Shown piece after piece: positions 3,661 to 20,998 of a stretch of 64,000 nt of DNA. The position numbers were made by a program, and so were the translations under genes. Position 1 is the stretch's first letter. Each line of letters opens with the position of its first letter. The notes below the pieces were generated by a model. The model made no database searches. It was not told the origin of the DNA and saw nothing but the letters and a program-made list of their open reading frames with translations. The stretch comes from a virus (Duplodnaviria; Heunggongvirae; Uroviricota; Caudoviricetes). The stretch lies in IMG/VR virus record IMGVR_UViG_3300028886_003642. One strand, given 5' to 3'.

Positions 3661-4305
3661 TCATTTTACTCTCCTTATATATTCTGGATATACTTTACTA
3701 GCACTAACTTTTTTACCTGCCTCATCTACTAATACTTTCTTACCACTAGGAGTTTTTACTTCGTAATATTTAGGTAAAGGTTCTTTACCTTGTTCTCGCA
3801 TGAAGTCATCAAATATATCTGTGCCATTTTGTTGTCTATATAGATTAGACATAGCACACATTATATTTACGTTAAAATTTAATATATCACTATTATCATA
3901 GCCCCAAAGAACTTCTTCTATGTTATCTTCTCCGATTGCAGTAAACTCGTCCATGGACGTAAATTTTTCAACAGTACTAAAATAATCTATACACTCATAT
4001 TTCTTGCCATCATATACTTTATTAGGAATAAATGTAATTAAAAATTCTTTTGGAGTTAACCTAGCTAAAAGTTGTGTTGTTTCTGTACCTGCCTGAAATA
4101 TTAAATAACTATTATCTTCTAACTTACAAATACAATTAAAATCTTTAACTAAATATCTACAAAGACTCATATATTGATATCTATCATATGGGTCTAGATT
4201 TAATAAAATATTATCTATTATTGACTTATATTTCTCATGCCACCATTCAGTAGTTTTCTTATTACCATCAATTACTTTAAAATTAGTAGATGCATCCATC
4301 GTCAT
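3661..4305 (-). CDS. hypothetical protein (214 aa)
   Basis: Long minus-strand ORF. No recognisable motif. Confidence 0.5.
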   Translation of the reverse strand: MTMDASTNFKVIDGNKKTTEWWHEKYKSIIDNILLNLDPYDRYQYMSLCRYLVKDFNCICKLEDNSYLIFQAGTETTQLLARLTPKEFLITFIPNKVYDGKKYECIDYFSTVEKFTSMDEFTAIGEDNIEEVLWGYDNSDILNFNVNIMCAMSNLYRQQNGTDIFDDFMREQGKEPLPKYYEVKTPSGKKVLVDEAGKKVSASKVYPEYIRRVK

Positions 4306-4510
4306 AATCTATTTCCCTGTATATTACATCTGGTTTAAAAACTTCACTTATTTCAAATAAAATAAAATCATCTTCATGTTCTGTACCATCATCAACAATA
4401 ACATCATGAAATGCTTTTGTGTCTTCAAAAATAAAATCACTAACGTATGTTGTAGAATCTGGGCTATAGCAATAAAGTTTTCCTGTACTACGATTAACTG
4501 CAATTATCAT
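4283..4510 (-). CDS. hypothetical protein (75 aa)
   Basis: ORF in operon context. Confidence 0.3.
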   Translation of the reverse strand: MIIAVNRSTGKLYCYSPDSTTYVSDFIFEDTKAFHDVIVDDGTEHEDDFILFEISEVFKPDVIYREIDYDDGCIY

Positions 4511-10518: not shown

Positions 10519-10689
10519 TTAATCCACCTTCCTATCCAAATATACAATTATTAAATTAAGTATAAATATTGATAATACAAAATCTATTATAGTACCAACA
10601 ACAGCACAAAAAAGATTACCGCTAAAATATGTTTCTACTAGCCAAAGAGTAGACGTTGTAATTGTTGCTACTACTAATGCTATTACTGA

Positions 10690-10960
10690 AAATATTGAAC
10701 ACTCCCACCACCTATAGAGGTGGGGGATTCCTGATTCATCGACTAATGCGCCAAAACCTTAGTTTCAGTGTCTTACATAATCTCCAAAGGCGTAGAGGTT
10801 ATTTCTAACCTCAGTTCCCGTATGACCTACGGTACTATTTTTCTTATGCTATATCTTTTGCTTTTGCTAAAATATTTATTGCCGCATTTCTATCTCTATC
10901 ATGATGCGCTCCACATACAGGACATACCCAATCTCGCACAAGTAAATTCTTTACTAGTGG
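10690..10960 (-). ncRNA. candidate TnpB-associated ωRNA (reRNA) region, estimated to span the tnpB 3' end and the right-end hairpin
   Basis: In IS200/605 the ωRNA overlaps the tnpB 3' end and extends past the RE. The flank has GC-enriched stems: gaggttatttctaacctc (10795-10812), cccgtatgacctacgg (10817-10832) and cccacc-acctatagag-gtggg (10704-10726). The 5' limit inside tnpB is a guess. Confidence 0.35.
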
Positions 10961-11962
10961 ATTTTTATATCCACATTCATAACAAGTTTGACTTGATGGG
11001 TAGAATGTAGGTATTTTTACTACTACACCGCCATGTTCTTTTGCTTTATATTCTAATTTAATAAAGAACTTACCCCATGCTACATCACTTATTGCTTTTG
11101 CTAACTTGTGATTCTTTAACATGCCTTTGATGTTTAACTTCTCAATAGCTATAAAAGCATTGTCTTCTGTTAAGTGATAAGTTAATTTATGCTGAAAATC
11201 ATCTCGTACATTCTTTATTTTTTCATGAATACGAGCAACTTTTATCCTTTGCTTTTCATATTGTGCTGAACCCTTTTTCTTACGAACTAATTTTCTTTGA
11301 GCACGAGCTAATTTCTTTGCAAATTTAGCAAGTATTTTTGGATTCTTTACCACATTACCATTAGTATCTGCATAAAAATCTTTTACTCCTACATCAATAC
11401 CTATTTCATGTCCACTATTAGAAAGCAATTCTGTTTCATATTTTACACAAATAGACACATAATATTTATTAGATGCTGTGCAAGTAACTGTTGCATTTAC
11501 AATTTTTCCTACCAAATCACGAGAAAGTTTGATTTTCACTTTCCCAATCTTTGGTAGTTGAATTGTATTACCTACTAATTTAATATTATTACTTACACAC
11601 TGACTTCTATATTTCTGACAATATGCATGTTTAGACTTAAACTTAGGATACTTAGATATCTTTTTAAAGAATCTATCGTATGCTACTTGTAAATCTCGAA
11701 GGGAATTTTGAAGTGCCGTACTATCAACTTCATTAAGCCAGCTATACTCATCATACTTTTTAAGGTCTGTAAGCATAGCATTTGTAGCACTATAATTAAC
11801 ACTTTTATGATTGAATTTCCATTCATCTCTACGAACCTGTAGAAAATGATTGTAAATAAACCGCTTACAACCAAGAGTTTTATTTATCAATATCCTTTGC
11901 TCTTTTGTAGGATAAATCCTATACTCCATGCCACGAGTAATTTCTACTATCAAAATTCTCAC
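10844..11962 (-). CDS. tnpB: TnpB (IS605 OrfB family RNA-guided endonuclease)
   Basis: N-terminal YRIYPTKEQ motif. RuvC-I GIDVGVKDF, RuvC-II IAIEKLNIKGM, and zinc finger CYECGYK...CPVCGAHHDRDRNAAINI containing RuvC-III. The true start is probably TTG/ATG a few codons inside the listed ORF, after RBS AGGAGGTG. Confidence 0.85.
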   Translation of the reverse strand: MRILIVEITRGMEYRIYPTKEQRILINKTLGCKRFIYNHFLQVRRDEWKFNHKSVNYSATNAMLTDLKKYDEYSWLNEVDSTALQNSLRDLQVAYDRFFKKISKYPKFKSKHAYCQKYRSQCVSNNIKLVGNTIQLPKIGKVKIKLSRDLVGKIVNATVTCTASNKYYVSICVKYETELLSNSGHEIGIDVGVKDFYADTNGNVVKNPKILAKFAKKLARAQRKLVRKKKGSAQYEKQRIKVARIHEKIKNVRDDFQHKLTYHLTEDNAFIAIEKLNIKGMLKNHKLAKAISDVAWGKFFIKLEYKAKEHGGVVVKIPTFYPSSQTCYECGYKNPLVKNLLVRDWVCPVCGAHHDRDRNAAINILAKAKDIA

Positions 11963-12130
11963 CTCCTAATTATATTGTAACATATGTAAGAAATAATTGC
12001 AAGTAGTTTGTGGCAATTCATCTCCACCCTTCGCTTCGCTTAGAGGATGAAGGCTTCTTGCCACACTCTGCTAAAACTACTTGTCCAAGGACTTTAAGCA
12101 TTTTTAATGTTTCTTTATAGGCATCTTTTA

Positions 12131-12478
12131 TCATTTTTTAACCTTCACAAACTTGACAGCCATAGTCTTTTTCTCAATAACACAATCTGCAAATTCAGCA
12201 CCATCAATTTCACCTGTAGCAATAGAATCTTCCAAAGCTTCTTCATTTACTACCTCCTTCAGTAACCATTTTGCATTTAGCTTTTTAACTACTTCTAAAG
12301 TTTTTTCTGGGTCTAATTTTTGTGATACTCTTTCTTCTACAATAGCTCTATATTCATTTCCTTCATATGAACCTACACCTTGAGATTTTACTTCTGCCTT
12401 TAGCTTATCTACTTCTTTCTTTAAAGCTGTCAACTCGGCATTCTTAATGGCAAGCAAATCAATTTTATTTTCTGACAT
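12131..12478 (-). CDS. hypothetical coiled-coil protein (115 aa)
   Basis: ORF with RBS AAGGAG. Confidence 0.4.
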   Translation of the reverse strand: MSENKIDLLAIKNAELTALKKEVDKLKAEVKSQGVGSYEGNEYRAIVEERVSQKLDPEKTLEVVKKLNAKWLLKEVVNEEALEDSIATGEIDGAEFADCVIEKKTMAVKFVKVKK

Positions 12479-12586
12479 ATATAGTGTACTCCTTAAAATA
12501 ACATATTAATTAGACATGGAATAATTCGATAAAGCAATAATATACTGAAAATTCCTAAGATAGCTATGACAAGCATAGCCATAAAC

Positions 12587-13069
12587 CTATACAATTTCAT
12601 ATTCATTATCTTTTAGCTGTTCCTCTACTGATTTTTCATCTGAACTATATTTAAGTTTATACACTGGATACTTATCTGGTGGCATGTATGGAAATTCTAC
12701 TGGAACTCTTGATTCTCTACAGGTAAATTTAACCCCATCTGGTTCAGCAAAAATTCTACCTTCTACATCATAACATTCTCCAGTTTCTTTATTTTTGAAT
12801 ACTGCTGAATATCTTTTATTTTGCCGTGTATTGCCATCAGGATCTAATATATCTGACCACTCATCCTCTTCTCCAGTTAATGGAGTTAAAGGTTTCCAAC
12901 TCCAAAGCCTATCTACAAGTGTAATTACAATAGAAGCTGACATATTAGTATGTCCTTGATCTACAAGTGTTTTTATAACCTCTAATACAGCTTTGTTCAT
13001 ATTATCGTCATAGAAATCAAAGTTATATCTTTTAAGTTCTTCTTCTGCCCAAGTTAACATATCTGACAT
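12587..13069 (-). CDS. hypothetical protein (160 aa)
   Basis: ORF in track. Confidence 0.45.
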   Translation of the reverse strand: MSDMLTWAEEELKRYNFDFYDDNMNKAVLEVIKTLVDQGHTNMSASIVITLVDRLWSWKPLTPLTGEEDEWSDILDPDGNTRQNKRYSAVFKNKETGECYDVEGRIFAEPDGVKFTCRESRVPVEFPYMPPDKYPVYKLKYSSDEKSVEEQLKDNEYEIV

Positions 13070-13079
13070 AATATATACC

Positions 13080-13979
13080 TCATTTTAAGAAATCAGCGTT
13101 CAAAATAAAACTATTATTTCCTGCACCAATCTTAGGAGTTTCGCCATTCCATTTTTCTATTGCTCTTTGACGTAATACATTTTCAGTTAAAGATTCTTGC
13201 AATTTAGCGTTAGCTTGTGCTTGACCTTCAGCTTCAATAATAGCAGCATCTGCCTTACCTTTAGCAGTAACTCTAGCTTTTTCAGCTTCAACTTCAGCTT
13301 GTTCTTTTTCAATACGAACACGTTGGAGTTCATTTTGTGCATTCACAACATTTTGAATTGCAGTTGCAGTAGCTTCATCAGGAACTACATCAGATAAGTT
13401 AAAAGTTTCAATTACAATGCCATATTCCTCTAAATCATTTCTAAACGCTTCAAATATCTTTTGATTAATCTCTGGGCGTTTATCTCCTACAAGTTCCATC
13501 AGACTATACTGGCTAGTTATATTATTAAGTGCTTCATACATAGCATTTTTCATGTAGCCATTTTGAATTGACTCAATATTTTGCCCTCTGAACTTTGCAT
13601 AAACAGCAGGTAGTTTTTCTACATCCATATGATAAGCATAAGTAACAGATGTGTTTACCTGCTTACCATCTTTAGTATTAACATTTACACTCTTATCTAC
13701 CTTCTTATCATCCTTATCACTACCGTCTACAGTATTTTTAGTATAATATACTGTTTCAGTAGAGATAGGATATTCACTCACATGTTTCCATGGAGCTACA
13801 ATATGAAATCCTTGTGACAAAGTTTCGTTTTCAATACCACCGTCCATGTTGTAGACTACACCAGCATATCCAGGGCCAATTCTATTTACACAAGTAAACA
13901 TGCCTACTGTACATACTGCCATACCAACAAAAATTCCAATAGCACCAAGATTTTTAATTTCCATAATGCACTCCTTCAA
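13080..13979 (-). CDS. SPFH/band-7 (stomatin/prohibitin/HflKC-like) membrane protein
   Basis: N-terminal TM segment, then GYAGVVYNMDGG...FHIVAPW...(SPFH core) and a C-terminal coiled-coil typical of band-7 proteins. Confidence 0.7.
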   Translation of the reverse strand: MKECIMEIKNLGAIGIFVGMAVCTVGMFTCVNRIGPGYAGVVYNMDGGIENETLSQGFHIVAPWKHVSEYPISTETVYYTKNTVDGSDKDDKKVDKSVNVNTKDGKQVNTSVTYAYHMDVEKLPAVYAKFRGQNIESIQNGYMKNAMYEALNNITSQYSLMELVGDKRPEINQKIFEAFRNDLEEYGIVIETFNLSDVVPDEATATAIQNVVNAQNELQRVRIEKEQAEVEAEKARVTAKGKADAAIIEAEGQAQANAKLQESLTENVLRQRAIEKWNGETPKIGAGNNSFILNADFLK

Positions 13980-14108
13980 AAAATCTTATTGAAAAATTTC
14001 TTTATCTCTCTACCTACTTCCTTACCATAATGAAAACATAGATACGCCCAAATAACAATAAAAGCTATTAAGATACAAAAGAACATTGCTCTCATGTTTA
14101 ATCAACTC

Positions 14109-14627
14109 TCAATCTAAAATCTCTATTGTAGCATATCGTACACCAAATTCATTACATTCAGCAACAGAATTCATAAAAATATCTAATACTCCATCTGTAG
14201 CAACTCTGTCTTTTATAACATAAATCTGACCATTATACCGAACTCTTGTCCCTAAAGGTAAACCATTCATAGCTGCACACCCCACATAAGGAACTTCACC
14301 ATTAGCCATAACACTATTAGGAGTTAGTCCATCATTAAGAGCGTATGCGCTCACCTTTACTTGCATTGTCCTATAGCTTAATTGTTGTGCCTTTTGTACC
14401 TGACCTTTTAACTCTGAAATTTCCTCATTCTTAGATTGAAGGTCAACTTTTAATTCATTTACATATTCAGCTTGTTTTTTAACAGAAGTATCTAATACTT
14501 CTATTGCTTGACTTCTTGATTCTAATTTTACTTCTAATTCTTTTGTGTGGTTATACCACAATACATTACTTCCAATTAGCATTCCTGCTAAGATTAAACT
14601 TCCTACAATTTTCTTTTTCTGAGTCAT
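14109..14627 (-). CDS. membrane-anchored 3D-domain protein (MltA/RlpA-like fold; possible cell-wall-binding/lytic function)
   Basis: C-terminal VSAYALNDGLTPNSVMANGEVP...GTRVRYNGQIYVIKDRVA...DIFM resembles the 3D domain. The start is moved to ATG at 14627 (MTQKKKIVGSLILAGMLIG signal-anchor) because the -10 of the consensus promoter (14696-14701) lies inside the longer ORF (to 14705). Confidence 0.55.
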   Translation of the reverse strand: MTQKKKIVGSLILAGMLIGSNVLWYNHTKELEVKLESRSQAIEVLDTSVKKQAEYVNELKVDLQSKNEEISELKGQVQKAQQLSYRTMQVKVSAYALNDGLTPNSVMANGEVPYVGCAAMNGLPLGTRVRYNGQIYVIKDRVATDGVLDIFMNSVAECNEFGVRYATIEILD

Positions 14628-14693
14628 TCGCCCGCCAGTCGAGCAAGTCCTTTTGGCTTGCTTTGCTGACTTCCCTCCTTTGATTTGATAAAC

Positions 14694-14726
14694 ATAGTAT
14701 AGCACATTTTTAAGTGCTTGTCAAGG
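14694..14726 (-). promoter_or_regulatory. sigma70-type promoter (-35 TTGACA at 14719-14724, 17 bp, -10 TATACT at 14696-14701)
   Basis: Minus-strand reading atccTTGACAagcacttaaaaatgtgcTATACTatg. Confidence 0.55.
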
Positions 14727-15287
14727 ATAAATTCCAAATTTTTCCAAGTACAAATGAAATTCTACAAATTCTGGGATTGAAATTTCAGACTTCTTTATTA
14801 CTGCTCTTTCAAATGTATGTTTTGTATTATCTGGAAATGTTATAGTAAATACTTGACTGGTTTCTTCCATAGGATAACCTAGTATATTAAAGTATTCTTT
14901 AAACATTTTTACTTTTTCTTTTGCTATTTCTTCATATTCTTTTTTCTTCCATCCTTTTTTCTTTACTAATCCTGCTCGTTTTTTAATAGCAAAAGGATGT
15001 GTCTGCCACATGTCAAAATGTATCTTTATAGTTTTACCTTCAAGATGTGGAAATTTATCTATAAACTTTTGTATAGGTTTATATATCCATATCATTCCTT
15101 TTTCTTCGCCTATAACTTCATCTAATATGAATTTTGCCATTTTATTAGTATGAGAATCTTGTAGCCAAATTACATTTTCTTCTTGCGGATTTCCATAGAA
15201 AAGGCTGGGCTTTAAGTGACTAGTATAGCCAGTATAGCCATTTTTATGCTCTAGCATATGTTTACTGTTAATCACTCTTGATTTCAT
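14721..15287 (-). CDS. hypothetical protein (188 aa)
   Basis: ORF that overlaps the SNF2 gene end by 20 nt. Confidence 0.45.
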   Translation of the reverse strand: MKSRVINSKHMLEHKNGYTGYTSHLKPSLFYGNPQEENVIWLQDSHTNKMAKFILDEVIGEEKGMIWIYKPIQKFIDKFPHLEGKTIKIHFDMWQTHPFAIKKRAGLVKKKGWKKKEYEEIAKEKVKMFKEYFNILGYPMEETSQVFTITFPDNTKHTFERAVIKKSEISIPEFVEFHLYLEKFGIYP

Positions 15288-17004
15288 CTAGTTCTCCTTC
15301 CCCTGTTAATAGGAAATTTAATACTTTTTCATCTTTAAGATCATACTTATGATCCACTAACGCATCTCCAAGAGCACCCTTCCTTTTTACTATTGAGTGA
15401 ATATTTTCATCTATAGTATGTTTGCAGACAAGTGTGATTACAGTTACAGTTTCTGTCTGACCTATTCTATGACATCGATCTTCACACTGAAGTTTTTCAC
15501 TAGCACTCCATGATTCATCTAAAAATATTACATTAGATGCTTTGTTTAAGGTCAGCCCAACGCCCATTGCTCCAACCGTACCAACTATAATATGACAGTC
15601 ATCCTTTTCATTAAAGTATTTAATTTGCCCTTCCCTATCCTTTATTTTACCAGTTATTACAGCTGAAATCAAATAATTGTCACTTAGAAATTTTCTGAAA
15701 TTTGATACTACTGTTTCCCAACAAGAAAATACAATGACAGATTCGTTTCGTTCAATAATTTCTTGTATTAACTCTAATGCTCTATCAAACTTAACAGACT
15801 CTTTTACAGTACTAGAAAGAATACTAGTATCAGCTGTTGCTTGTCTAAGTCTTATCATTTGACTAAGTGGATTTATACTTAATTTAATATTATCAATATC
15901 TGCCACAATAGCATTTAAAACATCTTTATATATTTTCTTTTGCTTTACTGACATATCCAAAAACTCTTCCACATAAATTTTAGGGGGCAATTGTTTTAGT
16001 ACATCAGCTTTTCTAAGCCTTTTAGACACTGATATAAGCTTTGCTTGTAATTCATCTAAATGCTTATGCCCCACGACTTCGTAATTACCAAACCCACCTA
16101 GTATATCATATCTAGATCTAAAATTACTAAAATTGCCTGTAAATGCTCCCGTAATCTTTAGTGGAATATAAAGGTCATCTGGTCTATTCATGAGTATAGT
16201 ACCAGTAAGTAAGTACACATATTTAACATGATTAGTTAATCTTAATAATGCCTTTGATTGTTGTGCAGAAGGTGAAACTATTTTATGACTTTCATCTACT
16301 ACAATACAATTAAATACACCCTTATCCATTAACTTAACTAACTTATCTGTAATAGTTTTCTCTCTAATTGACTCAATGTTAGTAACATAAATAGAAACAT
16401 CATTCTCAAGATTATTTAAATCTTCTAATTTTTCTTTTGTACCTTTAGTAAGCCATATACCTTTGCTATTCTGTCTATTACCTAAAATTTTACACTTAAC
16501 TCCTGTTGTATGCTTATTTACTTCATTTTCCCAAGTATACTTAAGCAGGTTCATTGCTGGTAGTATAAGTACTTTGTTTATCTGCCCTAGCTCTATTCTT
16601 TTTAGTATTGTAGCTATTGTGCAATTAGTTTTTCCAAGTCCTTGGTCGAGATTATAAATATAACGATCAAAAGCCATTCCTTCATCAAAAGTTTCTTTTT
16701 GATATGGATATAATTTAGTAGTTAATGCTTTAGGTAAAGTTATTGTGTGATCTACTATTTTTTCTCCATATTTTTTATTGTCAATTGGCTTCCCATAAAT
16801 ATCTATTCCCTCTTTTGGGAGAATATCTTTAAGTTCTGACAAAGCATCGTAAGGTATCTCCCACATCTTTTCTTCATTATGCCAATATCTTGGAGTTATT
16901 TTTCTTATTGCATCTACTATATTTTGTTTGTATCTAAATGTTAAAAATAAACTTTGTTCTATTCCTTTTAATTTTTTTGGTTTTCCATATTTTGCGTTTA
17001 TCAT
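15268..17004 (-). CDS. SNF2/RAD54-family helicase (DEAD/DEAH-like ATPase)
   Basis: Motif I LDQGLGKT, motif II IVVDESHKI, TGT motif, and C-terminal helicase motifs ...LTLNKASNVIFLDESWSA...QCEDRCHRIGQT. Confidence 0.8.
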   Translation of the reverse strand: MINAKYGKPKKLKGIEQSLFLTFRYKQNIVDAIRKITPRYWHNEEKMWEIPYDALSELKDILPKEGIDIYGKPIDNKKYGEKIVDHTITLPKALTTKLYPYQKETFDEGMAFDRYIYNLDQGLGKTNCTIATILKRIELGQINKVLILPAMNLLKYTWENEVNKHTTGVKCKILGNRQNSKGIWLTKGTKEKLEDLNNLENDVSIYVTNIESIREKTITDKLVKLMDKGVFNCIVVDESHKIVSPSAQQSKALLRLTNHVKYVYLLTGTILMNRPDDLYIPLKITGAFTGNFSNFRSRYDILGGFGNYEVVGHKHLDELQAKLISVSKRLRKADVLKQLPPKIYVEEFLDMSVKQKKIYKDVLNAIVADIDNIKLSINPLSQMIRLRQATADTSILSSTVKESVKFDRALELIQEIIERNESVIVFSCWETVVSNFRKFLSDNYLISAVITGKIKDREGQIKYFNEKDDCHIIVGTVGAMGVGLTLNKASNVIFLDESWSASEKLQCEDRCHRIGQTETVTVITLVCKHTIDENIHSIVKRKGALGDALVDHKYDLKDEKVLNFLLTGEGELDEIKSD

Positions 17005-17168
17005 AAATTAAACTTCCTTATCGCAATACTCATTATTCCTGCTACAAAAGCATTTACAAAAGAAAAATAATGTGTACTGAATATTGTATCTATACCTAAA
17101 AGTAATATTGTTCCTTGTACAAATCCTACAATCATGCTTGCTATTACTGACGCGAATAATATTCTCAT
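17001..17168 (-). CDS. small membrane peptide (~55 aa; MRILFASVIASMIVGF...)
   Basis: Internal ATG with strong RBS AGGAGAAAGAGAAATG. The listed 83-aa ORF (to 17252) lacks an RBS. An overlapping 30-aa hydrophobic ORF (17181..17273, MSENSVKWFLYGALTVLIIEMLFYLFVLIV) with RBS GGGGAGAA precedes it. Possibly holin-like. Confidence 0.35.
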   Translation of the reverse strand: MRILFASVIASMIVGFVQGTILLLGIDTIFSTHYFSFVNAFVAGIMSIAIRKFNL

Positions 17169-17305
17169 TTCTCTTTCTCCTATACAATTAGTACAAATAA
17201 ATAAAATAGCATCTCTATAATTAATACTGTTAATGCTCCGTACAAAAACCACTTAACACTATTTTCTGACATTTCTCCCCAACTCTTTTCTTTTAATTTC
17301 TGTAC

Positions 17306-17338
17306 ATAGTATAACACACTTTCGTCCTTCTGTCAAGA
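17306..17338 (-). promoter_or_regulatory. sigma70-type promoter (-35 TTGACA at 17331-17336, 17 bp, -10 TATACT at 17308-17313)
   Basis: Minus-strand reading gctcTTGACAgaaggacgaaagtgtgtTATACTatg. Confidence 0.55.
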
Positions 17339-17368
17339 GCAAAAAAGGGGAAATTTTACTTTCCCCTT
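17339..17368 (-). terminator. rho-independent terminator (GGGGAAA/TTTCCCC plus T7)
   Basis: ggggaaattttactttcccc, followed on the minus strand by TTTTTTT. Lies downstream of the 17401..18423 gene. Confidence 0.6.
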
Positions 17369-17400
17369 AAATTCCTTTCCCTAATTTTTCTAATAATTTA

Positions 17401-18423
17401 TTAAGATATTCCACTACTTATGCGGGTTCCTTTAGGAGTCTCTAATGCTTCCCTAAAAGACATTCCATTATGTAATCTGCGTCTAACCGTATGCCTACCA
17501 ATGTTATATAATTTACACCAATAAGATATAGGTTTCTTGACACCATCAAGCTCAAACATCTCTATACCATTTCTCTTTTTTGTCTTACGAGGTACTATTT
17601 CTAATGCTTCATATATATTCCAACCATCCCTAAGTCTTCTTGCCACTAAATCATATCTCTTATCATATCTTTCAGCTAAATCCCATACTAAGTCAATCTT
17701 ACCATCAAATTCTACACGTAAAGAAGTTCTTCTATTAAGTATTTGTTCATGACATGTTGCCCAACGACAGTTTTCCTTACAATAATTACCATTATAATCT
17801 ATACGGTCTAATGATGTATCATTTTCTCCATATTCATCGACATGTTCTTGATACTCATCATACATAGCATCACGAAATGCTATAAATGAATTATTCCATT
17901 CTTCACATACTTTTATTCCTCTTCCACCATAATTATGATATTCACAATTACTTTCATTATTACATCTATTTTTCATGTCTTGCCAAATTCTATAAAATCT
18001 TGTCCTAGACATATTATGAGTTATTTCTGACTCTGATACATACTGAGATTTCTTACAGCCGCACGATTTTGATATGCCATCTCTCAATGCCTGTGTAGTC
18101 AATTTCTTTCTTGTACCACAAGAACAAACTATATTCCACCAAGATGCCCTTTTCTCATATCCTGCATATGATTCAACATACCACTCACCAAAAGTCTGCC
18201 CTGTTAAATCTATAAATAAAGCTTCATGTAGTCTTTCTTTTCTCAAACATCCACATGACTGAGAAAATCCTTTCCTTAAACTATAACCATTAACTCTCAA
18301 ATGCTTTTCTGGATCACAATCACATACACAATCCCAATACCCACCACCAAGATAACTAAGTGCAGTCAATCTTCCAAATTTTTGTCCTGTAATATCTATA
18401 ACACTTTTATGCAAAAATATCAC
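17401..18423 (-). CDS. Cys-rich HNH-like endonuclease-family protein with duplicated N-terminal Cys module and C-terminal DNA-binding-like region
   Basis: Two copies of GQxFG...C.C.C...SCGC module. RFYRIWQDMKNRC...YGGRGIKVCEEW...LDRIDYNGNYCKENCRWAT is near-identical in pattern to 5783..6433. Confidence 0.5.
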   Translation of the reverse strand: MIFLHKSVIDITGQKFGRLTALSYLGGGYWDCVCDCDPEKHLRVNGYSLRKGFSQSCGCLRKERLHEALFIDLTGQTFGEWYVESYAGYEKRASWWNIVCSCGTRKKLTTQALRDGISKSCGCKKSQYVSESEITHNMSRTRFYRIWQDMKNRCNNESNCEYHNYGGRGIKVCEEWNNSFIAFRDAMYDEYQEHVDEYGENDTSLDRIDYNGNYCKENCRWATCHEQILNRRTSLRVEFDGKIDLVWDLAERYDKRYDLVARRLRDGWNIYEALEIVPRKTKKRNGIEMFELDGVKKPISYWCKLYNIGRHTVRRRLHNGMSFREALETPKGTRISSGIS

Positions 18424-19106
18424 ACCTTATTTTTAATATATTCTAACAACTTATTTATATACTCAACCAAGCTACTTCTTAGAAAGAATAGTCCCGCGAC
18501 CATAGATGTCATAGAAGCCCATTTACCTAAATCTTCCAATGAACCTAATGGGTCTAGTTTACTTCTTTCCTTTACATACCAATGTATAGATGCTGTTAGC
18601 TGTTGACCTAGTGTATATGTTAGGTTACTTGCTTGTTGTTGTACTACATCATGTACTCCATTTTTTAGTGCTGTGTTTATTACATCTTTTTGCGCATCTA
18701 TATTTTTCTCTAATTCTTTATACCACTGTTTTGCCTCATCTATATTTTTTGGCTCTACAAATGCATAAGAATCTACAATAGCTTTTGTAGTATCTGCTAT
18801 TACTGTATTTACAGTTTCTTTTACTATCTCTTTTGGTTTTTCTTTATTTTCTGTTGATAACATTACTACTTCTTTACTTATTATTTGATCTATATCTATT
18901 ATTTTTAATACAAAAGATTGTGTAGTAAAATCTTTCTTAGTTATAGTTACTGGTAATACTCCTACTTCTATTCCACTTATTGAAGTATTTCCTAAATTAT
19001 CAGTTGTTCTTTCTATTAAACCTTTACCTTCTAAATTAAATACTACTGAAGCTTCTTTAACTGGTTCTCCTGTTAAATCTTTTGTTTGTATTTTAATTTG
19101 TGCCAT
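18420..19106 (-). CDS. hypothetical protein with C-terminal hydrophobic segment (228 aa)
   Basis: ORF that starts immediately after the IscB-end hairpin. Confidence 0.45.
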   Translation of the reverse strand: MAQIKIQTKDLTGEPVKEASVVFNLEGKGLIERTTDNLGNTSISGIEVGVLPVTITKKDFTTQSFVLKIIDIDQIISKEVVMLSTENKEKPKEIVKETVNTVIADTTKAIVDSYAFVEPKNIDEAKQWYKELEKNIDAQKDVINTALKNGVHDVVQQQASNLTYTLGQQLTASIHWYVKERSKLDPLGSLEDLGKWASMTSMVAGLFFLRSSLVEYINKLLEYIKNKV

Positions 19107-20645
19107 CTAAATTTGTGGCGTTCTCCATCCTCTATAAGATAAAGGAGAACGCCACTTTCACCTCACTTTCTAAATAAGAATTATTATGTTGTAAAAATTT
19201 AATCTTTGAAGGTACTTTTTCAACTTTATTTCCAAATAAATCTTTTAATACAAAAGACCCTCTTTGCCTTAATCCTCCAATAAACCATAACTTATCATTA
19301 TACTCTACTGTATCATGCAAACAAAACCCCCTTACAAAATGTCCTGCTTGTGCTCTTTTACGAACACCACCTTTTGTTAGCACTTCTCTATGTAGTTTAC
19401 GATTATGTCTTCTTACTTGCTTTCTAAGAAAATAATAATCAAGCCGTTCTGCTTTAAGATTATTTGATATACAGTAAGCATCTGTAGTATGAGACTTTTC
19501 TATATTATTTTCTATACGCTTTACTTTTGTAATATAACCATAAGTTAAACTTACATTAACATAAATTTCTTTTAACTTATTATAAAAAGCCCATCTCATT
19601 ATTCCCATAAAAGTAGCGTCTTTAAATGACATACCTCTTTTTATATTTTTAGGTAAATCTATTAAACCTTTATGGTATTTATTGTGGCAAGACTCACATA
19701 ATGTAATTAAATTGTTTGGAGCATTACCCCCAGTTTTACGAGACTCAATATGGTGGACATTTAACACCTTATCTTTAGATTTTCCCTTACAGCATTGGCA
19801 TTTATGATCATCTCTAAACAATACATATTCTCTCACATTACCAAAACCATACTGATCACCTTCTTGATATTCCTTTCCGCTTATATTAGGATTTTTAATC
19901 TTTTGAATATCAAAACTAGCAACTTCCACTATAATTTTAGTTATAGGTAATATTTTATGTATATCAGCAACTAATTTTAAGTGTACATGAATTTTATTTT
20001 CTATAGAAGGTGCAAGCCAACCTTTAGGTTTTTCCCTGTTTAAAAATCTTGCAGATCTATAACGTGTTTTTCTATTTCTACGAGAACGTCTTAACTCCTT
20101 TCTTGTAGATAATAAATTTACTATACTTTGCTTACCATCACCAGAGCGCATAATAGTCTCTGACGCATACAATTCTTTCTTTTCAGTAGTTGCTGAAGCT
20201 CCAATATGTACAGAACCTGCATCTATACCTAATGTTATTGGTTGTTTATACCCAGCACTACCATATTTTAATTTAATTGTAAATGGTGTATACTTATATA
20301 TTTCTGCTCTACCACTTTTAAGCAATTTTCTTGCTTTTTGTGGGTTACAAGGCATAAGTGGTTTACCATTTTTGTTTAGTACATAAACTAACAATGAGTT
20401 TACCTCCTATTCCTGAGTTACACGACCCTTCGCCAATGTTATAATAGCTTGCTTAAATGTTAAGCCGTCCCCAGGTTGACTGTTCCTACCCATCAGAACT
20501 GTTTACAGAGCCTGTTCAGAGCTACAAACTAGGATCTATATTCATAGGTGAAATAACTAAAATAACGTAGTCAATTAAGACTTAGGCTAGTCAACTAGTG
20601 CTTGGTTCCAAGCTTCCACCTCTATAGGTGGTGGGTTATTGACCC
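19107..20645 (-). mobile_element. IscB-type IS200/605-superfamily element (iscB plus upstream ωRNA), no tnpA
   Basis: iscB is flanked by a 12-bp perfect hairpin GTGGCGTTCTCC...GGAGAACGCCAC (19115-19155, spanning the stop codon) and by an upstream hairpin ccacctctataggtgg (20617-20636). Exact ends were not determined. Confidence 0.5.
19132..20394 (-). CDS. iscB: IscB (OMEGA RNA-guided nuclease; Cas9-ancestor with PLMP, split RuvC and HNH domains)
   Basis: PLMP motif NGKPLMPCNP. RuvC-I ITLGIDAGSVHIGAS. Arg-rich bridge helix RRSRRNRKTRYRSARF. HNH DHKCQCCKG...NVHHIESRKTGGNAPNNLITLCESCHNKYH. RuvC-III-like HTTDAYCI. TTG start 7 nt after RBS GGAGGT. Confidence 0.85.
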   Translation of the reverse strand: MLVYVLNKNGKPLMPCNPQKARKLLKSGRAEIYKYTPFTIKLKYGSAGYKQPITLGIDAGSVHIGASATTEKKELYASETIMRSGDGKQSIVNLLSTRKELRRSRRNRKTRYRSARFLNREKPKGWLAPSIENKIHVHLKLVADIHKILPITKIIVEVASFDIQKIKNPNISGKEYQEGDQYGFGNVREYVLFRDDHKCQCCKGKSKDKVLNVHHIESRKTGGNAPNNLITLCESCHNKYHKGLIDLPKNIKRGMSFKDATFMGIMRWAFYNKLKEIYVNVSLTYGYITKVKRIENNIEKSHTTDAYCISNNLKAERLDYYFLRKQVRRHNRKLHREVLTKGGVRKRAQAGHFVRGFCLHDTVEYNDKLWFIGGLRQRGSFVLKDLFGNKVEKVPSKIKFLQHNNSYLESEVKVAFSFIL

Positions 20646-20650
20646 ACAAT
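20395..20650 (-). ncRNA. candidate IscB ωRNA
   Basis: A 250-nt GC-enriched, stem-rich non-coding region lies immediately upstream of iscB: gggtcaataaccc, ccacctctataggtgg, gcttggaaccaagc, ctagttgactag. In IscB systems the ωRNA is encoded 5' of the ORF and overlaps the RBS. Confidence 0.45.
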
Positions 20651-20998
20651 TACCATCCTTTCTATTATTGTATTTGCATCTTCTATTTCTATATGAATTA
20701 TCTGACCAAAAATATCAAATTCATATTTTCCTTCTCTTAACCCTGTGATAGTTATTATACTTCCTTCACCTTTTTTATATACTTTTCCTATATCTTCTAT
20801 AATAAATCCAGCCTCCACATTTTGCAGAGGCTTTCCTTCTTTATTTATTACACAAAATTTTACTGTAGCTCTATACTCACTATCTAAAAAATTAATAAGT
20901 TTATTACTTAATTTTTCTAAGTATTCATCACTATGTTTATCCATGAACCTTAATAGATACGGTATTATTGAAGCTACTAAATTTGCTATGAATTGCAA
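20636..20998 (-). CDS. hypothetical protein (120 aa)
   Basis: ORF in track. Confidence 0.4.
   Translation of the reverse strand: MQFIANLVASIIPYLLRFMDKHSDEYLEKLSNKLINFLDSEYRATVKFCVINKEGKPLQNVEAGFIIEDIGKVYKKGEGSIITITGLREGKYEFDIFGQIIHIEIEDANTIIERMVIVGQ

Follow-up and report, generated by a model that had tools for sequence, protein, structure and literature searches.

We analyzed a 64,000-nt stretch of DNA (IMG/VR record IMGVR_UViG_3300028886_003642; hereafter the window), which has a GC content of 31.5% and reads as a phage genome. We found that it carries two elements, one encoding the nuclease TnpB and the other the nuclease IscB, with identical 20-nt hairpins close to their right ends (REs). 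The explanation we regard as probable is that both are non-autonomous elements of the IS200/IS605 superfamily whose RE hairpins serve the transposase TnpA in trans, likely a single enzyme. Since neither element encodes TnpA, their mobility would need the enzyme in trans, and since the hairpins are identical, their sequences make it most likely that the same TnpA acts on both. The source of this enzyme is most likely an IS605 element in the host cell.

The initial annotation of the window had reported a hairpin downstream of tnpB at 10704-10726 and another upstream of iscB at 20617-20636, and had described the two as near reverse complements over about 18 nt. The first hairpin lies where it was reported and reads CCCACCACCTATAGAGGTGGGGG. 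The second reads CCACCTCTATAGGTGGTGGG and is shifted by 1 nt (20616-20635). The relation between the two was correctly seen and its length understated: 10704-10723 and 20616-20635 are exact reverse complements over 20 nt (inverted-repeat pair I4). A perfect 12-bp hairpin reported at 19115-19155 (19115-19126 paired with 19144-19155, loop ATCCTCTATAAGATAAA) and the sequence cgcttagagg reported at the tnpB left end (12037-12046) were also found, and the coordinates of the four features were at most 1 nt off. We then searched the 64 kb for the 19-mer with up to three mismatches. Only the two places were matched, a third match being the near-palindromic TnpB copy read on the opposite strand, and 100 shuffles gave 0.00 matches.

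An 80-kb ENA metagenome contig (ERZ27252065 k141_62998) is 100% identical to the window, and an exact look-up with the IscB protein returned only this contig, at the same phage locus and with 100% identity. The same look-up with the TnpB protein retrieved no match, and GenBank phages, searched by megablast with both element regions, yielded none either. A sister phage (IMG/VR contig IMGVR_UViG_3300028048_000107), which turned up only through IMG/VR, is about 95% identical to the window around both insertion sites; its locus L090 covers the TnpB region and L141 the IscB region, and their empty sites fix the ends of the elements.

The TnpB element is 1376 bp long (10695..12070, minus strand) and contains only tnpB. 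Its left end (LE) begins CAGAGTGTGGCAAGAAG and its RE finishes GGGAGTGTTCAA. In L090 the corresponding site is empty and reads GTAGTTATAG/TATTTTCAG (the slash marks the insertion point), which leaves both junctions unambiguous to the base. The window junctions read TTTAG/CAGAGTGTGGCAAGAAG ... GGTGGTGGGAGTGTTCAA/TATTTTCAG, with no target duplication. The insertion is precise and lies 3' of a short motif, the filled site being TTTAG/element/TATTTTCAG and the empty site of the sister TATAG/TATTTTCAG. The target-adjacent motif (TAM) TTTAG is directly 5' of the LE (12071..12075, minus strand). The sister phage has its own copy of the element, 94% identical, 395 bp away and after TTTAA. The IscB element is about 1537 bp long (19109..20645, top strand plus) and is absent from L141, where the site reads CATCT/ACAATTACC; this insertion is also precise, with a 1-nt ambiguity and no target duplication. 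Its putative TAM, CATCT (19104..19108, plus strand), lies 5' of the LE and overlaps the start codon of a neighbouring 228-aa gene. At that register the closest IscB relatives read CCACTC/AAAAT and CCACTT/AAAAC. An alternative boundary for the IscB element (TAM ..CAT, LE start CTAAA, RE end TTGAC) was considered and dropped: it would require a single-nucleotide polymorphism (SNP) in the sister, and the relatives at L117 and L119 as well as the TnpB LE all put the boundary 5 nt before (T)GTGGC. With the boundary at 19109-20645, the sister site requires no mutation. Each is a discrete insertion that has moved or been lost after the divergence of the two phages. Recent mobility of both follows from the sister phage, where the TnpB copy stands 395 bp off at another site and the IscB element is missing.

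The identity of the two genes as tnpB and iscB, which the initial annotation had proposed, was borne out by Pfam domain matches. The tnpB gene (10844..11962, minus strand; 372 codons as the longest open reading frame (ORF), likely start Met12) matched OrfB_IS605 (1e-26), Cas12f1-like_TNB (4e-24), and HTH_OrfB_IS605 (5e-16), and its product matched the ISDra2 TnpB structures with E = 1e-94. The iscB gene (19132..20394, minus strand; 420 aa) matched RRXRR (3e-65) and HNH (1e-8), and its product matched solved IscB chains with a best E of 3e-47 (OgeuIscB, 2e-44). Where ISC and TnpB-only IS605 elements have termini in common, their nuclease genes have been described as pointing in opposite directions (Kapitonov et al. 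2016, PMC4810608), and the RE has been reported to delimit the RNA upstream of iscB (Meers et al. 2023, preprint 10.1101/2023.03.14.532601). From the sequence we assigned the active (top) strand as minus for the TnpB element and plus for the IscB element, which makes both 20-mers RE hairpins. The 20-mers are reverse complements in the window because tnpB lies on the transposon top strand and iscB is antisense to it, with both genes on one genome strand. The TnpB RE hairpin (CCCCCACCTCTATAGGTGGTGGG; 10704..10726, minus strand) has a CTAT loop on a 9-bp stem from which one T bulges. The IscB RE hairpin (CCACCTCTATAGGTGGTGGG; 20616..20635, plus strand) has a 6-bp stem, CCACCT/AGGTGG. As DNA the two hairpins fold with z = -3.0 and z = -3.1, respectively. 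The 20-mers lie 9 nt (TnpB) and 10 nt (IscB) from the RE tips, in agreement with the earlier proposal that they are IS200/605 subterminal hairpins.

We then looked at where the hairpins fall in the guide RNAs. A HEARO scaffold (RF02033) lies directly upstream of iscB at 20418..20643 on the minus strand and was matched by cmscan over the full model (1-211) with 125 bits (gathering threshold 83, E = 2e-25); the element end at 20645 is 2 nt past the start of the model. The IscB 20-mer falls inside the HEARO alignment (model positions about 9-32) as the first nested stem after the 5' guide. The putative IscB guide, AGGAUGGUAAUUGUGG, comprises the 16 nt 5' of the scaffold (20644..20659, minus strand) and was placed from the HEARO start and the published IscB guide-RNA layout. 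For the TnpB element, an Rfam search for the guide RNA gave no match even at E ≤ 1. In the minimum-energy RNA fold, the TnpB 20-mer forms a 9-bp stem with one bulge, followed by the final 9 nt of the element and by the guide, and it is predicted to be the last stem of the TnpB guide RNA before the 3' guide. The candidate TnpB guide, UAUUUUCAGUAAUAGC, is the first 16 nt past the RE (10679..10694, minus strand), as judged from the RE boundary and the known layout of TnpB guide RNAs. The initial annotation did not see that both 20-mers are RE hairpins, that both are stems of guide-RNA scaffolds, and that the other two ends are left ends.

The same architecture was found in many other elements. 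We read 89 viral stretches with the 16-mer core of the hairpin on the strand giving CCACCTCTATAGGTGG, and they sorted into three contexts. The first consists of TnpB right ends (..GAAGCC-hairpin-GGGTAGTTCAC/variable flank). The second consists of IscB right ends (..CAAGCC-hairpin-TGGGTAGTTGAC/variable flank), which are the reverse complement of the HEARO 5' end. The third consists of left ends (TTTAAC/..GCAAGAAxxCC-hairpin-GGGATGAATTGC). The TnpB RE of the window (GGAATCC-hairpin-GGGAGTGTTCAA/) matches the first context and its IscB RE (AAGCTT-hairpin-GGGTTATTGAC../) the second. TnpB elements (..TAGTTCAC/) and IscB elements (..TAGTTGAC/) both follow the RE plan GAAxC-hairpin-GGG-8/9 nt-end, and the flank becomes variable right after the end. 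Across 25 REs from TnpB and IscB elements, compensatory changes occurred at 9/9 pairs, and pairing was 84% compared with 38-58% when the partner columns were slid. The RE hairpin is conserved in structure and variable in sequence.

The left ends are related and more diverged. Aligned on their own top strands with the boundary 5 nt before TGTGGC, the two LEs agree in two blocks at matching positions, TGTGGC and CT(T/C)CATCCTCTA, have low similarity outside these blocks, and do not share the RE hairpin. The cgcttagagg at 12037-12046 is the complement of CATCCTCTAAG. Within the window, the 11-mer class CATCCTCTAWR is confined to the two LEs (0.24 expected; 2 of 100 shuffles reached two), and a CC-TCTA(T)A core is present in all four ends. 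The TnpB LE contains an imperfect palindrome (12009..12065, minus strand) with an outer stem TGTGGCAA/TTGCCACA and an inner part CTTCATCC-TCTAAGCGAAGCGAA-GGGTGGAG. Its frame, GCAAGAAG..hairpin..GATGAATTGC, is that of LEs in autonomous IS605 elements. The TnpB element has subterminal hairpins at both LE and RE on one strand; the LE palindrome is present and its fold is weak. The IscB LE hairpin (19115..19155, plus strand; pair I15) has a perfect 12-bp stem, GTGGCGTTCTCC/GGAGAACGCCAC, and a loop that holds CATCCTCTATAAG; as DNA it folds at -14.4 kcal/mol (z = -8.2). It can be aligned with the TnpB LE and with the LE of L119, the closest IscB relative, to which the IscB LE is homologous. Alignment of the four ends, which the initial annotation had suggested, thus gave two identical RE hairpins and two related, more diverged LE structures. 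We also scanned viral contigs with the pattern TGTGGC N5-9 YCATCCTCTA. There were at least 118 matches, nearly all of them chance, and only 7 had a closing GCCAC, none resembling an IS end. As the scan gave no IS-like end, this LE variant is seemingly confined to the phage lineage studied here.

We searched the 64 kb for a Y1 transposase with four diverse TnpA queries and found none, with nothing better than E = 0.2. Autonomous tnpA-tnpB elements with the same hairpin as RE were found at L042 and L028. The exact 20-mer also occurs as the LE of autonomous elements at L008, L037, and L066 and in many bacterial genomes, such as a Butyrivibrio metagenome-assembled genome (MAG; L260). The Y1_Tnp domain in these autonomous elements was matched with E = 1e-43 to 1e-46. 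These cognate autonomous elements were seen only in other genomes and contigs. The same 16/20-mer thus stands at the ends of many IS200/IS605 elements, in line with the earlier suggestion to look for further copies. Within single autonomous elements, the LE and RE stems are unlike and the loop YTCTATAR is kept. This suggests that the loop, which the initial annotation had called a CTATAG core, is the likeliest feature for TnpA to recognise.

The nearest relatives of the two nucleases have other hairpins. The 16-mer core was carried by 0 of 105 TnpB-relative loci and 0 of 24 IscB-relative loci (0/129 in total). The closest IscB relatives (75-77% aa identity; L117-L119) have a longer, different stem-loop at the hairpin position, and the closest TnpB relatives (54-60%; L368-L373) have hairpins of the CCCACGACTTCAGTCGTG type. 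Because the core is in none of the relative loci, the 20-mer match is specific to the co-resident pair, and it goes beyond a generic GC clamp. We also found three hairpin classes, with a TCTATA loop, a CTTTAG loop, and a long TTCAAGCG-type stem-loop, each of them on both TnpB and IscB REs. By these comparisons the hairpin variant does not track nuclease phylogeny. The variant shared by the co-resident pair is that of a widespread IS605 group with tnpA, a pattern consistent with either adaptation to the hairpin of one available TnpA or exchange of that hairpin. We therefore put forward, only tentatively and as less probable than its contrary, the idea that the RE hairpin is an exchangeable module that tracks the locally available TnpA and not the nuclease lineage. 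If true, the guide-proximal stem of both scaffolds would be shaped by compatibility with the transposase, and co-resident OMEGA elements would converge on, or swap, the hairpin of one TnpA.

In the mechanism we propose, a Y1 HUH TnpA would recognise hairpins that the LE and RE form on a single DNA strand, excise that strand as a circle, and insert it 3' of a short target motif without target-site duplication. With tnpB on the active strand and iscB on the opposite one, each guide RNA would abut the RE. One hairpin would then do two jobs, as the DNA end recognised by TnpA and as a stem of the guide RNA. In the TnpB RNA it would be the final stem ahead of the 3' guide, and in the IscB HEARO RNA it would follow the 5' guide as the first hairpin.

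Several observations weigh against a single TnpA acting on both elements. The target motifs are unlike: the TnpB element follows TTTAG or TTTAA, the IscB element CATCT. The left ends are diverged and share only about 15 nt. The DNA fold of the TnpB LE (-10.2 kcal/mol, z = -1.6) is not significant. The IscB LE lacks the internal-loop segments GGAAAC and GAGGAAT, which are present in the LEs of all inspected IscB relatives. The loss of these segments accounts for its perfect 12-bp stem, and this LE may be a poor TnpA substrate. The IscB RE tip carries CC past the canonical TTGAC end of the family (20644-20646), which makes it 2 nt longer. Many IS605 ends in Bacillota of gut and rumen, and in other bacteria, have the 20-mer, so two elements could carry it without one shared enzyme in one host. 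We infer TnpA binding and the guide-RNA ends from sequence.

The remaining serious rival builds on these points. It holds that the hairpins are IS200/IS605 RE hairpins, yet were used by a different TnpA for each element or in a past, different host, with the 20-mer being a common end variant. The 20-mer was found in 107 bacterial genome stretches from many taxa and the 16-mer in the 89 viral stretches described above, and the differences between the two elements in target motif and left end speak for it. However, with the core in 0/129 nearest-relative loci, it is unlikely that the same variant came together in one phage by descent. Unlike motifs do not exclude a single enzyme either, as target choice in this family is set by DNA-DNA pairing within the LE and one TnpA can serve differing motifs (Meers et al. 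2023). We consider this rival unlikely.

A second rival gives TnpA no role. The hairpin would be only an RNA stem, and the identity at the DNA level would come from a patch of recent recombination or gene conversion. The hairpin does lie within HEARO and within the predicted fold of the TnpB guide RNA, and the identity ends exactly at the 20-mer, with unlike RE sequence on either side. Yet the two RNAs would hold complementary versions of the stem and not one version, and their scaffolds are unrelated, so that RNA function alone does not account for the identity. The two copies agree on a single DNA strand, the top strand of the transposon, on which TnpA works. Autonomous elements also have this hairpin as their LE, a position without any guide RNA. 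This makes the RNA-stem explanation improbable, more so than that of separate enzymes. We give still less weight to the hairpins being intrinsic terminators or other regulatory stem-loops of the phage that flank the genes by accident. Their stems are GC-rich against a 31.5% GC genome, but a terminator scan flagged 0 of 4 hairpins, none is followed by a T-run, and in the sister phage the hairpins are missing wherever there is no element. A chance likeness between two generic GC-clamp hairpins, for which the near-palindromic nature of the sequence is the sole argument, was ruled out by the shuffles, and the two copies further agree in the loop and in the bulge-side extension TGGG, neither of which stem pairing demands. 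We also rejected a composite transposon spanning the 10 kb between the 20-mers, since the two REs are on different strands and the segment is not enclosed by any LE/RE pair. As far as sequence analysis reaches, the earlier interpretation, mobilisation of both elements by one TnpA in trans, is supported.

The system belongs to a known kind, of which it is a phage-borne example. In Geobacillus stearothermophilus, the TnpB-only and IscB-only elements among ISGst1-5 have similar LEs and REs, and one TnpA encoded elsewhere excises all of them (10.1101/2023.03.14.532601). As in ISGst1-5, the guide RNA abuts the RE in both kinds of element in the window and the target motif abuts the LE. The similarity of LEs and REs on the top strands is likewise found here, the REs being identical over 20 nt and the LEs sharing the two blocks given above. 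Unlike ISGst1-5, the window elements are in a phage, have no tnpA within 64 kb, and are known from sequence alone. Their REs are identical over 20 nt, whereas their left ends and target motifs (TTTAR and CATCT) are more divergent than those of ISGst1-5. In Ktedonobacter racemifer, the IscB element ISC2-1_KR and the TnpB-only element IS605B-1_KR share termini with subterminal hairpins, with tnpB antisense to iscB, and mobilisation in trans by a Y1 transposase was predicted (PMC4810608). The window pair differs from these in sequence family, host, and target site (GTGG in K. racemifer).

For the single elements, ISDra2 of Deinococcus radiodurans (8BF8, 8H1J) has a clear homologue of the window TnpB, and its guide RNA comes from the tnpB 3' end and the RE. 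Stem 4 of that RNA immediately precedes the pseudoknot strand and the guide, and TnpB contacts it mainly via its backbone. We infer, from position only, that the window TnpB hairpin may correspond to stem 4. Unlike the window element, ISDra2 is autonomous (tnpA and tnpB) and has the TAM TTGAT. In HEARO, the window hairpin is the first nested stem of the model, in a short variant with a TCTATA loop, while the closest IscB relatives are longer at this position. As in IS608 of Helicobacter pylori, the window elements have imperfect subterminal palindromes on one strand and are inserted 3' of a short motif without duplication. The cleavage site is a few nt 3' of the RE hairpin in both cases, and the hairpin sequences are unlike. 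The IS608-style pairing between DNA guide and cleavage site gave no consistent rule here, and we make no claim on it.

The window offers a clean natural example, base-resolved via a sister genome, of a TnpB element and an IscB element that live together in one phage. Both elements are recently mobile and transposase-less, and both have what would be the same transposase-recognition hairpin within their predicted guide RNAs. If one TnpA serves both, the published picture of one TnpA with many passengers would extend from the bacterial chromosome to a phage, and phage-borne elements would therefore depend on a host transposase during infection. The pair also provides two natural substrates for asking how far a transposase dictates a guide-RNA stem.

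The empty sites in the sister phage both deviate from the targets expected for the window nucleases, by a SNP in the TAM for TnpB and by a guide mismatch, two bases from the scaffold-proximal end, for IscB. The empty TnpB site has TATAG (L090 2494-2498) where the window has TTTAG, which changes Leu to Ile in a small ORF; TATAG could be a TAM-escape allele or a plain polymorphism. Because of the two extra C at the RE tip, the predicted IscB guide mismatches the empty site (..TTGTAG; L141, about 3993-3998) at position 15/16, next to the scaffold. For extra bases at an RE tip, RE cleavage that slipped at an earlier donor site is an experimentally documented precedent (Meers et al. 2023). Both empty sites of the sister may represent alleles that evade homing cleavage.

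The TnpB element splits a 68-aa hydrophobic ORF (MLKVLGQVV...) at codon 10 (12101-12071 and 10694-10519, minus strand), which is intact in the sister phage (L090, start 2468). Within the TnpB LE, upstream of tnpB, there is a promoter-like site (TTGCAA-17-TACAAT, extended by TG; 12002-11974, minus strand), and autonomous relatives have TTGACA..TATAAT at the corresponding place. In the TnpB copy of the sister, the LE (L090 2903-2975) has a 10-nt deletion that removed the 3' arm of the outer stem, GCCACAAACT. The RE hairpin of this copy has substitutions, including an A-to-G change that gives CCGCC/GGTGG with a G-T pair. The sister copy may be decaying. Outside the element, the window has a sigma-70-type promoter match (TTGACA-17-TATAAT, 12/12; 10306-10278, minus strand) followed by a terminator-like hairpin (10258-10237, minus strand) upstream of nrdD. 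The sister phage lacks the -10 part of this promoter stretch, and its TnpB element sits there instead.

Other occurrences of the hairpin were also noted. The 20-mer is highly multi-copy in single MAGs of Erysipelotrichaceae (isolate A75_L1_316316), Succinivibrio RUI234, Fervidobacterium UBA8200, and Proteocatella (within L260-L366). These copies are often at contig ends, which indicates active IS605 expansions. A Paenibacillus herberti locus (L319) has an RE tip, AGTGTTCAA, equal to that of the window TnpB element. At L070 (6007-6310), copies of an LE-type and an IscB-RE-type hairpin are 288 nt apart. This pair resembles a PATE-like derivative that encodes no protein and has retained a portion of the HEARO RNA. 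In two viral contigs of 207 and 236 kb (L117 and L118), the closest IscB relative is inserted in a tRNA-Cys gene within a tRNA array and divides the tRNA in the D-loop (4280-4365 and about 2690-2720).

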